Shown: positions 1,988-39,215, counted from the first letter of the stretch. The stretch: 64,000 nucleotides of DNA from an uncultured Candidatus Rokubacteria bacterium (GCA_963707305.1 CAVPPZ010000014.1:1-64000), one strand, 5' to 3'. The notes: generated by a model not told the origin, from the letters alone. Program-made: numbers and translations.

Positions 1988-3409
1988 TCAGGCCGCGACG
2001 GGAGGCCGCCGCGTCCCCACGCCCGTCGCCTGCTCGAAGGCGTGGGCGAGCTGCAGCACCCCCCAGTCGTCCTGATGGCGTCCGACGATCTGGAGCCCCA
2101 CCGGCAGGCCGTCGTCGGTGAACCCGCACGGCACCGAGATGGCCGGCAGACCCGTCACCGTGATGTCCGAGCAGACGCGCATCCAGTCGATGTAGGTGGG
2201 CAGGCGCACCCCGTTGATCTCCGTGGGGTACGGCTGCGTGACGTCGAACGGCGGGACCTGGGTCACCGGCAGGAGGAGGAACGGTCGCTCCTCCATGAAC
2301 GCGCGGACGCGGTCGTAGAGGGCGGCGCGGCGCGCCTCGGCCTGCACGATGTCGTGCGCGGTGAGCTTCTGGCCCTGCTCGATGTTCCAGATGACGGTGT
2401 CCTTCATCTGGTCGCGATGGCGCTCGAGGAGCGGCCCGTACTTCGCGAGGAACAGGATCGCGCGCCAGACCTGGAAGATCTCGCGCGCGTCGGTGAAGTC
2501 CGGGTGGCCGTCCTCCACGACGCACCCGAGCTGGGTGAAGATCCCCCGCTGCCGCTCGATGACCGAGCGGATCCGCGTGTCGATCGGGAGACCGCCCAGA
2601 TCCGGCGCCCACGCCACCCGCACGCCGCGGAAGTCGCGCGCCAGCGGCGCGCGAAACCGCTCGCCGGGCTCCGCGATCGCGAGCGGCGCGCGCCGATCGG
2701 GGCCCGCCATCGCGCTCAGGAGGAGCGCCGCGTCCGCGACCGTGCGCGCCATGGGACCGTGCGTCGACAGTCCGAGCCACGGCGCTTCCGCGGGCCACAC
2801 GGGCACGCGGTTGAGCGACGGCCGCAGCCCGACCACGTTGCAGAAGCTCGCCGGGTTGCGGAGCGAGCCGCCGAGGTCGCTGCCGTCCGCGATCGGCACC
2901 ATGCCGCAGGCGAGCGCGACCGCGGCGCCGCCGCTCGAGCCGCCGCACGTCTTCGAGGGATCGTACGGATTCAGCGTGCGGCCGAACACCTCGTTGAAGG
3001 TCTGCGAGCCCGCGCCGAACTCCGGCGTGTTGCTCTTGCCGAGCGTGATGGCGCCGGCCGCGAGGGTGCGCTCGACCACGAGGGCGTCGGCGTCGGGCAC
3101 GTGGTCCCGGTAGATCGGCGAGCCGTACGTGGTGCGGATCCCGCGCGTCACGAACAGGTCCTTGTGCACGATCGGCAGGCCGAACAGCGGGCCCATGGTG
3201 TCGCCGCGCGCGAGCGCGGCGTCCTTCGCACGCGCGTCGTCGAGCGCGCGCTCGGCGGTGAGCGTCACGATCGCGTTGACCTTCGGGTTCACGCGCTCGA
3301 TCTGCGCGAGGTGCGCCTGCACGACCTCGGTGATCGACACGTCGCGGGCGCGGATACGGCGGGCGAGCTCGGTCGCGGTGAGGAAGCAGAGGGTGTTCAC
3401 GCCCGGCAT
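1988..3409 (-). CDS. amidase (amidase-signature family, GatA-like)
   Basis: 473-aa ORF with the amidase signature GGSSGGAAVALACG plus the KDLF...TRG and SDLGGSLR motifs. It is the first gene of the minus-strand cluster. Confidence 0.85.
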   Translation of the reverse strand: MPGVNTLCFLTATELARRIRARDVSITEVVQAHLAQIERVNPKVNAIVTLTAERALDDARAKDAALARGDTMGPLFGLPIVHKDLFVTRGIRTTYGSPIYRDHVPDADALVVERTLAAGAITLGKSNTPEFGAGSQTFNEVFGRTLNPYDPSKTCGGSSGGAAVALACGMVPIADGSDLGGSLRNPASFCNVVGLRPSLNRVPVWPAEAPWLGLSTHGPMARTVADAALLLSAMAGPDRRAPLAIAEPGERFRAPLARDFRGVRVAWAPDLGGLPIDTRIRSVIERQRGIFTQLGCVVEDGHPDFTDAREIFQVWRAILFLAKYGPLLERHRDQMKDTVIWNIEQGQKLTAHDIVQAEARRAALYDRVRAFMEERPFLLLPVTQVPPFDVTQPYPTEINGVRLPTYIDWMRVCSDITVTGLPAISVPCGFTDDGLPVGLQIVGRHQDDWGVLQLAHAFEQATGVGTRRPPVAA

Positions 3410-35551: not shown

Positions 35552-35588
35552 AGGGCCCCGCCCCGCTGGTCTAAGTGCCGATAAGCCG

Positions 35589-35648
35589 CATTATGTCAAC
35601 CACGCCAGGAGCGAGACGCTCGTGGCGTGGTCGACATAATGCCCGGGG
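35589..35648. repeat. long inverted repeat (19-bp arms) GCATTATGTCAACCACGCC ... GGCGTGGTCGACATAATGC
   Basis: Near-perfect hairpin (1 mismatch) in the convergent intergenic region between the beta-helix gene and the Sec-peroxiredoxin gene. It contains the ATGTCAACC motif that also ends repeat copy B. Confidence 0.5.
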
Positions 35649-35687: not shown

Positions 35688-36162
35688 CTACTGCTTCTTA
35701 CGCAGTGACTCGATCACGTCCAGGACCCGGAGAACCTCCGCGCCGTCGCGGACCATCTGACGGTCGCCGGCCTGGCCCCAGCGCAGGATCGCCCTCCCGA
35801 TCCACCACGAACGTCGAACGCCACGCCACGTTCCGGTCCTCGTCCAGGACGCCGTACGCACGGATCGCGGTGCGATGGATGTCGCTCAGGAGCGGGAACG
35901 AGATCTTCCGGGCCTCCAGGAACGCGGCGTGGGAGAACGGGCTGTCGGCGCTGATGCCGAGCAGCATCGCCCCACGCTCCGCGGCCTTCGCTGCGACCTG
36001 GCCCAGGCCGCCCAGCTCAGGCGTTCAGATGCTGCCCCAGTCGTAGCAGTAGAAGACGAGGACGACGTCCTTGCCACGGAGCTCGGCCAGGTGGATCTGG
36101 CCGCCCCCCGTGGACGGGAGCGTGAAATCCGGCGCGGGCTGGCCGAAGCGGAGTCCTGTCAT
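35688..36162 (-). CDS. Bcp-type peroxiredoxin with in-frame TGA at the peroxidatic-Cys position (candidate Sec-Prx); 1 frameshift near 35795
   Basis: ATG 36162 overlaps the paaK stop (ATGA). The product is [46 protein letters not shown](TGA, 36027..36025)-TPELGGLGQVAAKAAERGAMLLGISADSPFSHAAFLEARKISFPLLSDIHRTAIRAYGV... This aligns with the Bcp motif FYPKDxTPGC(T)TE, with U in place of the peroxidatic Cys. After a 1-nt shift the C-terminus reads ...ILRWGQAGDRQMVRDGAEVLRVLDVIESLRKKQ. Confidence 0.6.
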
Positions 36163-37432
36163 GCGTCCCTATGTACCACACGGACCGCCTTTCCTTCAGA
36201 GCGCGGAATCGTCTGCGGTGGGACGAGGTGGACCTCGACGCCGAGACCGATCGCGACGCGCACGCAGTCGGCGATCCGGACGCGCAGCGCGTCCAGCTCG
36301 GGATGGCGCTCCGTGAAGCCGCCGCACCGCGCGAGCAGCAGCGCCGCGGGCTCGACGTGGACCTCCACGCGCGCGAGCGTCTCCGTGCGATCGACGACGA
36401 GCTGATAGTGCGGCTCGAGCTCCGCGATCGTGAGCAGCGCCGCTTCGACCTCGGACGGATAGACGTTCACGCCCTTGATGACGAGCATGTCGTCGGCGCG
36501 TCCCTTGAGCCGCGCGATGCGCGCGGACGTGCGCCCGCACCGGCACGGCGCGGTCGTGAGCGCGGTGATGTCGCCCGTCCGGTAGCGGAGCATGGGCAGC
36601 GCGCGCTTGGTCAGCGTCGTCACCACGAGCTCCCCTTCCTCGCCCTCGCCGCGCGGCGCGCCCGTCGCGGGATCCACGATCTCCGGCAGGAAGTGATCGT
36701 CCGGCGACGTGCAACCCCTCGCGCGCCTCGCACTCGCCGGCGACGCCGGGTCCGATGATCTCCGACAGGCCGTACACGTCGTACGCGGGGCAGCCCCACA
36801 CGCGCTCGAGCGCGCGCCGCAGCCCTTCGGTCCACGGCTCGGCGCCGAACATCCCGTACTTCAGGCCGAGCTCGTGCGGGCGACCGCCCGGCGGCGAGCA
36901 GGCTCTCGCCGATGTGGAGCGCGAACGACGGCGTGGCGCCGAGCCCGTCGGGCCGGAAATCCTGGAGCAGCATCTGGTGGCGCGCGGTGTTGCCGGAGGA
37001 GACCGGGACCACGGTCATCCCGATGCGCTCGCCGCCGTCGTGAAAGCCGAGGCCGCCCGTGAAGAGCCCGTAGCCGTAGGCGTTGTGCAGCGTGTGGCCG
37101 GGCCGGGCGCCGGCCGCGACCATCACTCGCGCCATCACCTCGCGCCACACGTCGAGGTCGCCGGCCGTGTAGCCGACGACGGTCGGCTTGCCCTTGGTGC
37201 CCGACGACGCGTGGATTCTCGCGAGCTCGGTCCGCGGGACCGCGAAGAGCCCGAAGGGATAGTGCTCGCGCAGGTCGGTCTTCCGCGTGAACGGCAGCGC
37301 CTGGAGGTCGTCGAGGCTCCGGATCTCCGGCGTGCCGACGCGCGCCCGGATCACCGGCACGCGCTCCACCGTCCACCGGACCGTCTCGCGCAGGCGGGCG
37401 AGCTGGAGCGCGCGCCGCTCGTCGGCCGTCAT
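36159..37432 (-). CDS. paaK: phenylacetate--CoA ligase (PaaK); two frameshifts
   Basis: [20 protein letters not shown]...[14 protein letters not shown] (AMP-binding motif) ... then shifts near 36900 and 36715 ... [17 protein letters not shown]...[19 protein letters not shown]...[13 protein letters not shown]...[19 protein letters not shown]...[12 protein letters not shown]. Confidence 0.8.
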
Positions 37433-37461
37433 CGTCTCCGCGCCTGGATTCCAGATCATCC

Positions 37462-37818
37462 TCAGCCCTTGGGTGGCAACCGACCGTCCGACCGTCCATT
37501 TTGTGCGAGGACGGTCTTGAGGTCAGGCGGCTCCGGGAACTGCTGGTCGACGGTGACGTGCCGGCGCAGTCCGAGGGCTTCCCGCTGGATCAGGAGGGCA
37601 AGCCGCGCGTCGAGGGCCCGGCGCCGCGCGATGGTGTAGTCCTCCGACCGCCGCTCGTGCTCGGCCGCGTCGCGGGCGGCGAGCAGGCGGTCGGCGGCCT
37701 CGCGCGTCTCCTGGAGGGCCTGCTCCAGCCGCTCCCCGGCCCGGCCCAGCGCGGCCGCCTTCTCTCCGGCGATCTCCTTCTCGATCCGGCGGAGGGCCTC
37801 GCCCCGGGTCGACGTCAT
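37462..37818 (-). CDS. hypothetical coiled-coil protein (118 aa)
   Basis: ATG 37818. Charged helical sequence with no recognisable domain. The stop overlaps the upstream-most paaK ATG. Confidence 0.35.
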   Translation of the reverse strand: MTSTRGEALRRIEKEIAGEKAAALGRAGERLEQALQETREAADRLLAARDAAEHERRSEDYTIARRRALDARLALLIQREALGLRRHVTVDQQFPEPPDLKTVLAQNGRSDGRLPPKG

Positions 37819-38053
37819 TCGAGGACGACCCCCGTGAGGAGCCAGTGCTGACGCTCGAGGAAATGCTTCAACGTCTCCATGACGGCCGGGTCCGTCGCCG
37901 GCTCGAGGCTGACGCGGTCGGGCAGGATGTGGCGGACGTCGGGGTAGGTCACGAGCACCTTGCGCAGCGTGCGCACGCGCTGGTCCGACGACAGGAGCCC
38001 CTGTCCCTCCCGCCCACTCCACTCCCCGCGCAGGAGAACGCGGATGGCCCGGC

Positions 38054-39215
38054 TCAGGAGACGCCAGCCTCCACGCGGGCGGCCGCTTCCGTGTACAGGT
38101 CGAGCGTCCGGTCGATCTGGAGACGGACGTCGAACTCGCGCTCGGCCACGGCGCGCGCGCGGGCGGCCATCCGCGCGCGCCGCTCGGGATCGAGCAGCAG
38201 GCCGATGGCGGCCTCGGCGAGGGAGGCGCCGTCGGGCTTGGTGAGCACGCCCGTCTCGCCGTCACGGACGGCCTCGTCGCACCCGGGGCCGCTCACCGTC
38301 ACCGCGGGCAGCCCGCACGCGGCGGCCTCGGCGAGCACGAGCCCCTGGGTCTCGGTCTCGGACGCGAAGACGAAGAGATCGGCGGCCCGGTAACACTCGA
38401 CGAGCGCCTCGTGGGGCCGCACGCCGAGGAAGTGGATGCGATCGCCGACGGGCAGCGCGCGGGCACGGCGGCGCAAGCGCGTCCGCTTCGGTCCCGTGCC
38501 CGACGAGCACCAGGCGCGCCCGCGGGACCGTGCCGACGACCAGCTCGAAGGCGGTCAGGATCCGTTCCACGCTCTTCTCGCGGTCCAGCCGGCCCACGTA
38601 GAGCAGCACGCGGTCATCGGCCGCGAGCCCCAGCTCGCGACGGGCGCCGGCGGTGTCGCCGGGCGCGAAGTGCGCGAGGTCCACGCCCGTCGGCACGACC
38701 GCGATCGGCGTGCGCACGCCGCGCGCCGTGAGCTCGTCGCGGATCAGCGCGGACGGCGCGATGACGGCGTCGGCGCGCGCGGCGAAGCGCGTGCTGATGC
38801 CGACCGCGGCCGCCTCGACGAGACGGCGCGGCAGCGGGACGTAGTGCGCGTACTTGTCGTAGCGCGTGTGGTAGGTGAACACGAGGGCGCGGCGCTCGCG
38901 GTGCGCGAGCCGGCGCGCGAGCGGGCCGAGGAGGAACGGATGGTGCGCGTGGAAGACGTCGAACCGCTCGGCGCGCACGCGCTGGGACACCGCGCGCGAC
39001 CACGGCACCGCCAGCGCGAACTCGGGATAGGTCGCGGCCGGGAGCGAGGGATAGCGCACGATGTGGTCGGTCGTGTCGGCGGCGCCGGGAAAGCGCGGCG
39101 CGAACACCCAGGCCGCGTGACCGCGGGCCTCGAGTCCCCGGCGGAGCGTCTCCACCGAGGTGGTGACGCCGCCGCGAAACGGCAGGTAGTTGTTGGTGAA
39201 GAGAGCGATCTTCAC
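38054..39215 (-). CDS. glycosyltransferase family 4 (frameshifted near 38480)
   Basis: N-terminus MKIALFTNNYLPFRGGVTTSVETL (GT4 N-terminal domain). After a shift the C-terminal domain reads ...FLGVRPHEALVECYRAADLFVFASETETQGLVLAEAAACGLPAVT. Confidence 0.8.

Follow-up and report, generated by a model that had tools for sequence, protein, structure and literature searches.

A candidate selenocysteine codon at the peroxidatic position of an AhpE-like peroxiredoxin from Candidatus Rokubacteria

The 64,000-nucleotide stretch of DNA analyzed here (the window), from an uncultured Candidatus Rokubacteria bacterium, carries on its minus strand a gene for a peroxiredoxin (Prx) in which a TGA codon falls where the catalytic cysteine is expected. 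Such a codon could specify selenocysteine (Sec), could be read as some other amino acid, could be a genuine stop, or could be an error in the assembled sequence. Here, we consider which of these readings is best supported by comparison with related genes, and what kind of peroxiredoxin the gene would encode.

The gene and its internal TGA

The gene occupies positions 35688–36162 on the minus strand, from an ATG start codon at 36162–36160 to a TAG at 35690–35688. As assembled, it lies in two frames; once a single inserted base is removed (see below), it encodes 157 amino acids. The protein used in searches was reconstructed by joining the two frames and replacing Sec (U) with Cys. The reconstructed Prx matched PF00578 (AhpC-TSA) over residues 7–126 with a score of 125.4 bits (E = 1.7e-36; Pfam gathering cut-off 26). 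The AlphaFold2 model displayed a peroxiredoxin fold (pLDDT 88, pTM 0.86), and its top matches in the PDB were all peroxiredoxins. A strand at residues 33–37 is followed by a loop and then by a helix at residues 47–62 (α2), which residue 46 caps at its N-terminal end. The active-site loop was modeled with low confidence, at a pLDDT of ≈62 for residues 41–50.

The TGA, at 36027–36025, is codon 46. In HMMER alignments it shares a column with the peroxidatic Cys (Cp) of 2ywn (FTQVCTKE) and of human PRDX2 (FTFVCPTE), in agreement with the sequence-only reading, which had placed the TGA on the catalytic Cys. The same reading held that peroxiredoxin sequence resumes in frame after the TGA, and the PF00578 match and the homologues bear this out: the frame continues as TPELGGLGQVAAKAAERGAMLLGISADSPFSHAAFLEARKISFPLLSDIHRTAIRAYGVLDEDRNVAWRSTFVVDREG. 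An intact counterpart (L081) was present on an independent contig from forest soil. It is 88% identical to the window gene at the nucleotide level and 94% identical at the amino acid level, and 46 of the 58 nucleotide mismatches fall at third codon positions.

When one genome per species was scanned, 168 relatives of the Prx came to light, and the loci of the best 80 of these 168 were retrieved, nearly all from Candidatus Rokubacteria/Methylomirabilota MAGs. The TGA is kept at codon 46 in all 80 of these species-level loci, and also in L081, while TGC, TGT and TGG are found at this site in none of the best 80 of 168. The surroundings of the codon in the 80 loci read FYC[YF][D/S/A][WF]GxI-TGA-[TS]PE[LI]. 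In a codon alignment that was guided by MAFFT and comprised 81 sequences, dN/dS was 0.34 before the TGA (43 ungapped codons) and 0.28 after it (108 codons), and GC3 was 0.90 on the 5' side and 0.91 on the 3' side. By this measure, both halves of the gene are under purifying selection, which, together with the high GC3 on either side of the TGA, indicates that they are translated as a single protein.

These comparisons bear directly on the reading of the TGA as an error for TGC or TGT, or as a true stop that would give a 45-residue peptide and a protein of ≈91 residues started from an internal ATG. Prediction programs do call two separate genes here, and the assembly is demonstrably indel-prone, as described below. 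However, L081 and the independent assemblies of the 80 species-level loci share this TGA, and the errors seen in the window consist of indels and include no substitution. The 45- and 91-residue pieces are, moreover, complementary halves of one Prx domain, cut at the junction of strand β3, the Cp loop and helix α2, and the internal start positions differ among the members. The comparative data thus effectively refute both forms of this reading, to which we assign a negligible probability.

The split gene calls are reflected in the public databases. In a search of 5.8 billion proteins, nearly all close matches (75–95% identity) were 90–108 residues long and comprised only the part after the TGA. 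An exhaustive search with HMMER, covering 1.84 billion cluster representatives, likewise recovered clade members (66–77% identical) as truncated calls in every case. Nine database matches were “full-length”; the residue at the Cp position was W in eight of these and L in one. Several of the W-bearing records, from JGI pipelines that translate TGA as Trp, overrun the normal C-terminus by way of a second W. The suspicion that this Sec-Prx had been missed by annotation was therefore well founded, since the public records are almost exclusively 90–108-residue fragments or TGA=Trp read-throughs. Separately, Leu stands at the Sec position in two records, P0008 and P0232, for neither of which an encoding contig is on record.

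The second irregularity in the gene is a one-base insertion at position 35789 (an A, read on the minus strand), where the window reads GGC G[A]TC CTG and the homologues read DREGVLRWGQ. It is the sole gap in the coding sequence relative to L081, and its removal restores DREGVLRWGQ; as assembled, the conserved C-terminus of the Prx (ILRWGQAGDRQMVRDGAEVLRVLDVIESLRKKQ-stop) sits in another frame. A one-nucleotide frameshift had already been noticed from the sequence by itself; it is real and consists of a single base, but it lies at 35789 rather than near 35795. The neighboring genes are similarly affected. The upstream gene, for a paaK-type AMP-binding ligase (36159–37459, minus strand; AMP-binding_C_2), requires three frames (−1, −2 and −3) in a tblastn alignment with the intact PaaK of another locus (L040), with shifts near 36880 and 36690, and a GT4 glycosyltransferase gene is split within the Glycos_transf_1 domain, with profile positions 6–60 in one open reading frame and 63–171 in the next. 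The extra bases, at ≈36690, ≈36880 and ≈38440, amount to three more frameshifts within the adjacent 3 kb. In close relatives (92–95% identity), paaK is intact at 403 residues and so is the C-terminus of the Prx. Four indels within ≈3.2 kb, in a region that is intact in relatives, are better explained by an assembly prone to indels than by decay of the Prx gene alone.

The window copy might nevertheless be a pseudogene, in a clade of otherwise real selenoproteins, if the insertion is genuine and destroys the C-terminal 35 residues. The frameshift does stand in the assembled sequence, outside any homopolymer run. However, the rest of the protein retains the 94% identity to L081 and the excess of third-position differences noted above, the conserved ILRWGQAGDRQMVRDG... 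block can still be read from the sequence beyond the shift, which carries no more damage, and both paaK (two shifts) and the glycosyltransferase gene (one shift) within 3 kb are broken as well, while their relatives are intact, as fits an indel-prone assembly. A pseudogene is therefore unlikely. The insertion is most likely an assembly error and not a biological lesion, as the sequence-only reading had also supposed; the three neighboring frameshifts and the intact close relatives make that suggestion a probable one.

The start of the Prx gene overlaps the stop codon of paaK (TGA, 36161–36159) in an ATGA at 36159–36162 on the minus strand, and is preceded by a Shine–Dalgarno-like AGGGA at 36170–36166. 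The same 4-nt overlap is found in the contigs of L081, P0015 and P0016. This overlap had been taken as a sign that the Prx is translationally coupled to paaK. The overlap itself is real, but it occurs only in close relatives and is absent from all 80 species-level loci, four of which carry paaK ≈840 nt upstream. We considered paaK as a clade-wide partner and rejected it, as it is not directly adjacent to the Prx gene in any of the 80 loci. The limitation of the overlap to close relatives suggests a local arrangement that gives no clue to function. No conserved redox partner or operon emerged across the 80 loci, in which the commonest neighbor is present in 25 of 80.

A hairpin downstream of the UGA and the selenocysteine trait

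If the UGA is decoded as Sec, a bacterial SECIS element should follow it. Published criteria for such elements (bSECIS) specify an apical loop of 3–9 nt on an upper stem of 4–16 bp, a G within the first two positions of the loop, which mostly starts G[G|U], a UGA-to-loop spacing of 16–37 nt, and a minimum free energy of −7.5 kcal/mol or lower. The 54 nt from the TGA onward were aligned in 81 sequences, which could be done free of gaps. RNAalifold returned a single helix from this alignment, in which columns 18–24 pair with columns 28–34 around a 3-nt loop, and manual counting gave the same result. In the window, the hairpin spans 36011–35993 on the minus strand, with 8 bp, of which 7 bp form the conserved core (36010–35994), and with the apical loop GGC at 36003–36001. 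The 3-nt loop and the stem of 7 conserved base pairs (8 in the window) are both within the published ranges. The first base of the loop, G25, is invariant, and the loop starts with GG or GU in 74 of the 80 loci, the GGC of the window among these forms. The distance from the UGA to the apical loop is 21 nt (alignment positions 4–24), and the energy of the folded segment (36013–35990) is −13.3 kcal/mol. The SECIS prediction 3' of the TGA that had been suggested as a check thus found a hairpin that agrees with published bacterial elements in all four respects and that also covaries.

The covariation is the more telling part of this evidence. In the alignment, 97.6% of the helix cells are paired, compared to only 13–46% when the 3' arm is slid by 1–3 nt. 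There are 48 double-change cells in the helix, and the observed covariation was matched in none of 500 shuffles. The pair between columns 20 and 32 is AU in 34 sequences, GC in 30, GU in 15 and AC in none, while the pair between columns 24 and 28 is GC in 51 and CG in 17. Because column 24 falls on a synonymous third position, within a Leu codon, its covariation with the first base of a Gln/Glu codon does not arise at the protein level. In addition, the longest run of identity between the window and L081, 65 nt from 36057 to 35993, stops precisely where the 3' arm of the hairpin ends (P ≈ 0.006 for a run ending there if the mismatches were randomly placed). The fold energy is unexceptional when considered on its own, with z = −1.5 for the 63 nt after the UGA and z = −1.9 for the isolated hairpin, and the case for a SECIS therefore rests on the comparative data. 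Single-sequence folding of those 63 nt gave an alternative structure; this was non-significant at the z given above, and the comparative helix was preferred. Like the consensus bacterial SECIS (bSECISearch; the E. coli fdhF/fdnG type), the Prx hairpin is in frame, lies directly 3' of the UGA and has a loop that begins with G. To our knowledge, it has no primary-sequence likeness to the E. coli elements.

The decoding machinery was sought in the same material. Searches for tRNA-Sec in the 64-kb window and in 60 of the loci were negative, and the window contains no tRNA at all. Neither the window nor the flanks of the 80 loci contain selA, selB, selC or selD, according to searches that, for SelA, SelB and SelD, used tblastn with approximate E. 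coli probes against the window and 1.2 Mb of loci. A weak SelD-like match in one locus (L033) was ThiL-like on inspection. Rfam reported no family in a scan of the whole window, which is uninformative, as Rfam is without a useful bacterial SECIS model. The window has eleven further in-frame TGAs that are flanked on either side by high GC3, but all of these appear to lie in antisense frames, and a screen of the window for CxxU/UxxC motifs produced no convincing selenoprotein candidate. Since no sel genes were found in the window or flanks, we infer the Sec machinery of the source genome from its relatives.

A Rokubacterial contig, L009, carries a second selenoprotein gene beside the Prx. This gene encodes a complete DsbA/DsbG-type lipoprotein with a thioredoxin fold (Pfam Thioredoxin_4, E = 3e-34), and its best NCBIfam match is NF041057, “thioredoxin-like (seleno)lipoprotein”. 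The TGA in this gene is at the first Cys of CPYC (VEFSDYQ-U-PYCKR), and it is followed by a hairpin of its own, beginning 19 nt from the U of the UGA. Furthermore, according to a 2026 review (PMC13188914), 63 selenoprotein genes are predicted in one MAG of the Methylomirabilota. Together, the second selenoprotein and the Methylomirabilota report suggest that the Sec trait is present in the lineage.

There is also the possibility that the UGA is recoded to something other than Sec, either to Cys, by a SelB-type factor acting with a tRNA-Cys that resembles tRNA(Sec) and bears the anticodon UCA, or to Trp or Gly in a reassigned genetic code. SelB-dependent insertion of Cys at UGA is described for some bacteria, the sequence by itself leaves the inserted amino acid unspecified, and the JGI pipelines rendered several clade members with TGA as Trp. 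Reassignment, however, is excluded by the ends of the genes: the 80 Prx genes terminate in TGA (41), TAA (21) and TAG (18), and the 41 that end in TGA identify it as an ordinary stop, so that the code is not reassigned and the internal UGA is read by context. Moreover, the “W” read-throughs overrun the conserved C-terminus, and at a Trp or Gly site one would expect TGG or GGN codons in some members, but such codons are absent from all 80 loci. Further points against this reading are the location of the site at the redox-active Cp, the agreement of the hairpin with the bSECIS criteria, the second selenoprotein of the classic UxxC kind on L009 and the large selenoproteome reported as predicted in the Methylomirabilota MAG (PMC13188914). 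We therefore consider recoding to any amino acid other than Sec very improbable. The proposal of a candidate selenocysteine peroxiredoxin, by comparison, is well supported by the conservation of the TGA in 80 of 80 loci, the covariation of the SECIS, the selection on both halves of the gene and the 41 TGA terminators.

Active site and relationship to known peroxiredoxins

The active-site motif of peroxiredoxins, PxxxT/SxxC, reads C39-Y-D-W-G43-S-I-U46 in the window Prx, or CxxxGxxU. Cys39 (TGC, 36048–36046, minus strand) occupies the site of the universal Pro (Cp-7), and Gly43 (GGC, 36036–36034, minus strand) that of the catalytic Thr/Ser (Cp-3). Both substitutions are found in 80 of the 80 loci, so that neither Pro at Cp-7 nor Thr/Ser at Cp-3 occurs in the window Prx or in any of the best 80 of 168. 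The Cp-2 position is variable among the 80 loci (S/G/N/R/T). The conserved catalytic Arg115 (codon 35820–35818, minus strand), which corresponds to Arg116 of M. tuberculosis AhpE (MtAhpE), is invariant (...NVAWRSTF...), and the catalytic Glu49 is kept in the clade alongside it. The alignment of this region with the Bcp/Prx motif FYPxDxTPGC(T)TE, as originally put forward, thus holds for the coincidence of TGA and Cys, but the actual sequence is FYCYDWGSI-U, with Cys in place of Pro and Gly in place of Thr.

These substitutions go together with Sec. Of the nearest representatives, the 98 whose motif could be scored include 74 with P...[ST]...C but no case of Cys at −7 and Gly at −3 combined with Cys at Cp. 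Two further peroxiredoxins among the nearest representatives, in which TGA is likewise translated as W, retain the Thr. In MtAhpE, Pro38 adjoins the reactive Cys, and the Thr is reportedly replaceable only by a residue that bears a hydroxyl group (PMC7231847). The motif of known Sec-peroxiredoxins has been given as T/SxxU (PMC1794560) and as a “highly conserved PxxxTxxU” (PMC13188914). The literature that we searched contained nothing that describes a CxxxGxxU motif or that substantively ties Rokubacteria to selenocysteine; large selenoprotein screens may list the clade as plain “Prx”.

The original label of the gene, Bcp-type, did not stand up to comparison with curated profiles. Scores against NCBIfam models were below the cut-off in all cases, and far below for Bcp (NF006960, 54.2 bits against 140) and PrxQ (NF053650, 54.3 against 260); AhpC scored 66 against 272 and PrxU (NF040737) 65.7 against 270. 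Among solved structures, those of AhpE and Prx1 come closer to the window Prx than Bcp does. The best PDB match by identity (38–39%), RMSD (1.6 Å) and length was MtAhpE, with a TM score of 0.87–0.90, and the nearest full-length relatives with Cys, which are only 40–49% identical, show canonical motifs of the AhpE kind, among them FYPFAFSGICTGEL and FYPLDWSPVCSNQL. Given the low Bcp/PrxQ scores and the match to AhpE, “AhpE-like”, which is based on the closest structure and the nearest Cys relatives, should replace “Bcp-type”. The protein may belong to the AhpE subfamily itself, although its identity to AhpE is low and the Pro and Thr are missing. There is some likeness to the BCP/PrxQ group in the Prx fold, the small monomer and the Thr at Cp+1, and the archaeal Bcp-like proteins 2ywn and 3hjp are among the top sequence matches. 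However, the resolving Cys of the CxxxxC motif of that group is absent from the clade.

MtAhpE (PDB 1XXU, 1XVW and 4X0X) is a 1-Cys peroxiredoxin of ≈153 residues that shares with the clade the GI-Cp-xxEL context, the Glu at +3 and the catalytic Arg. It differs in having Cys45, Thr42 and Pro38 where the clade has Sec, Gly and Cys, respectively, and the identity between the two is only ≈39%. The reductant of the mycobacterial enzyme is mycoredoxin/mycothiol. Some clade members are named “mycoredoxin-dependent peroxiredoxin” in JGI records.

Sec-containing peroxiredoxins are already known. The family that has PrxU of Eubacterium acidaminophilum as its prototype (PF00578) resembles the clade in its fold, in the position of Sec at Cp encoded by UGA, in its in-frame SECIS, in the Arg and in being truncated by gene callers. 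In contrast to that family, the clade falls below the NF040737 cut-off, has invariant Cys and Gly in place of Pro and Thr, and has no Cys orthologue that we could see. Known Sec-peroxiredoxins arose from Cys forms repeatedly, with five Cys-to-Sec conversion events tabulated (PMC1794560). Within the clade, a Cys-containing orthologue was seen neither among the 80 loci nor in the HMMER search of 1.84 billion representatives. The earlier description of the pattern as typical of Sec/Cys pairs was therefore overstated; relatives with Cys at Cp do exist, but at 40–49% identity and outside the clade.

Other thioredoxin- or Prx-fold redox selenoproteins combine Sec with a nearby Cys, and the 2026 review (PMC13188914) includes among them the Prx-like thiol:disulfide oxidoreductases (UxxC), Prx-SUH (NF045827, CxxU) and the cd02970 AhpC/TSA-like proteins (UxxS). 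In these families, Sec is part of a CxxC-type dyad, whereas in the Prx clade it is at the true Cp and its partner Cys would be seven residues upstream. NF045827 did not match the window Prx at E ≤ 1e-3, and models related to SelL and WAxxUGC were marginal only. On present comparisons, the clade is best described as a distinct AhpE-like variant of the Sec-peroxiredoxins, with an altered catalytic motif and apparently obligate in its use of Sec.

Proposed mechanism and implications

Taken as a whole, the evidence makes it very probable that the gene encodes a functional Sec-containing peroxiredoxin belonging to an AhpE-like clade with a wide distribution in the Rokubacteriales/Methylomirabilota of soil and groundwater, that its Sec is read by way of the hairpin, and that the insertion at 35789 is an error of the assembly. 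In the mechanism that we propose, the UGA would be decoded as Sec by SelB and Sec-tRNA(Sec), with insertion directed by the hairpin through its G-first apical loop 21 nt past the UGA. Because Sec46 occupies the Cp position and Arg115 and Glu49 are kept, the selenolate most likely attacks hydroperoxides, and would itself be converted to a selenenic acid. With its low pKa and high nucleophilicity, Sec may make the activating Thr dispensable. Cys39, the equivalent of which adjoins Cp in AhpE, could serve as a built-in resolving thiol, forming an intramolecular Cys39–Sec46 selenenylsulfide that would then be reduced by a reductant of the thioredoxin or mycoredoxin type. Since the Thr that is lost has been reported as essential for Prx catalysis, there is also room for a role other than that of a peroxidase.

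A more far-reaching interpretation is that the clade constitutes a mechanistic subclass of peroxiredoxins in its own right, in which the change from Cys to Sec is accompanied by loss of the Thr (to Gly) and by replacement of the Pro with a resolving Cys at Cp-7, giving an intra-loop selenenylsulfide and an obligate dependence on selenium. The last of these features is suggested by the lack of a Cys orthologue. We advance this interpretation tentatively and consider it somewhat less probable than its opposite. If it is correct, the clade would represent a natural experiment in which Sec substitutes for the activation network of peroxiredoxins.

The immediate consequence is for annotation. A widespread family, which has 168 relatives in the one-genome-per-species scan and also comprises hundreds of metagenomic clusters, is presently stored almost only as fragments or as mistranslated read-throughs, and recognition of the Sec codon would give a complete antioxidant enzyme back to Rokubacterial genomes. 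The clade is also of interest for the chemistry of peroxiredoxins, the catalysis of which is thought to need an invariant set of Pro, Thr, Cys and Arg. Throughout the clade, two of these four have been exchanged, and only alongside Sec, which makes it a concrete system in which to test what Sec gives to an enzyme. Finally, selenoprotein-rich bacteria have been described as mostly anaerobes. A predicted, apparently obligate-Sec peroxidase in a phylum of soil and groundwater adds to the hints that the Methylomirabilota may depend heavily on selenium.

Frameshifts and Assembly of the Window

Together with the single inserted base at position 35789 in the peroxiredoxin (Prx) gene, four indels fall within ≈3.2 kb of the window. 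Two of these are frameshifts in paaK, near positions 36690 and 36880, and the fourth lies near 38440 in the glycosyltransferase gene (38054–39215); both genes are intact in the relatives. The entire window was probably derived from an indel-prone assembly, perhaps one of long reads, and every ORF-based reading of it should therefore be treated with caution. Between paaK and the glycosyltransferase gene, a small ORF on the minus strand (37462–37860) displayed a weak match to DUF6665 (E = 3e-4, under the gathering score). The 267-aa ORF call that encloses it looks like an over-extension.

An Inverted Repeat Downstream of the Prx Gene

The Prx gene and a pectate-lyase-like gene converge on a 136-nt spacer, which contains a 20-bp inverted repeat (35578–35642) with arms GCATTATGTCGACCACGCCA and TGGCGTGGTTGACATAATGC separated by a 15-nt loop. 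The repeat is AT-rich against a 70% GC genome and is present in one copy in the window. Its right arm and flank (GTTGACATAATGCGGCTTATCGG) were 100% identical in L081, an independent forest-soil contig, while the remaining spacer had diverged; the repeat was not found in the best 80 of the 168 relatives' loci (L001–L080). It may act as a terminator or a regulator site, or give rise to a small RNA.

Labels and Database Entries of the Prx Family

Several loci that have the Prx gene with 67–72% identity (L011, L025, L033, L055, L056, L058, L067, L070, L072 and L079) carry record titles from other phyla. The bacterial labels are Binatia, Acidoferrum, Dormiibacterota, Myxococcales, Verrucomicrobiia, Limnocylindria and Deferrimicrobiaceae, and there is one archaeal label, Nitrosocosmicus. 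Most of these loci originate from a single MAG catalogue, SMAG, and the labels could result from mis-binning, mislabelling or horizontal transfer.

In the public protein databases, nearly all entries of the family (P0001–P0009 and P0010–P0120) are C-terminal fragments of 90–108 aa, N-terminal fragments of 45 aa deposited as separate entries, or JGI translations in which TGA is read as Trp and which continue past the true stop codon. They are variously labelled AhpC, peroxiredoxin, mycoredoxin-dependent peroxiredoxin or redoxin domain protein. Two entries, P0008 and P0232, have Leu at the Sec position (FYCYDFGGI-L-TPEL); to our knowledge, no standard genetic code reads TGA as Leu, and for neither entry is a source contig recorded.

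Other Candidate Selenoproteins

The Rokubacterial contig L009 carries a second selenoprotein gene on its minus strand (2445–3086). Its product is a DsbA/DsbG-like lipoprotein with a thioredoxin fold, and TGA occupies the first Cys position of the CPYC motif. The distance between the U of this UGA and the start of a hairpin, CCCAGCA-GGUG-UGCUGGG, is 19 nt. The protein is related to the NF041057 “(seleno)lipoprotein” family, scoring 117 bits, below the cut-off of 190.

Among unrelated peroxiredoxins, two cluster representatives, one of them P0270, have W at the peroxidatic Cys position and the canonical Thr at −3 (e.g., FYALAFTGGWTNEL). Both are probably additional Sec-peroxiredoxins in which TGA was translated as Trp.
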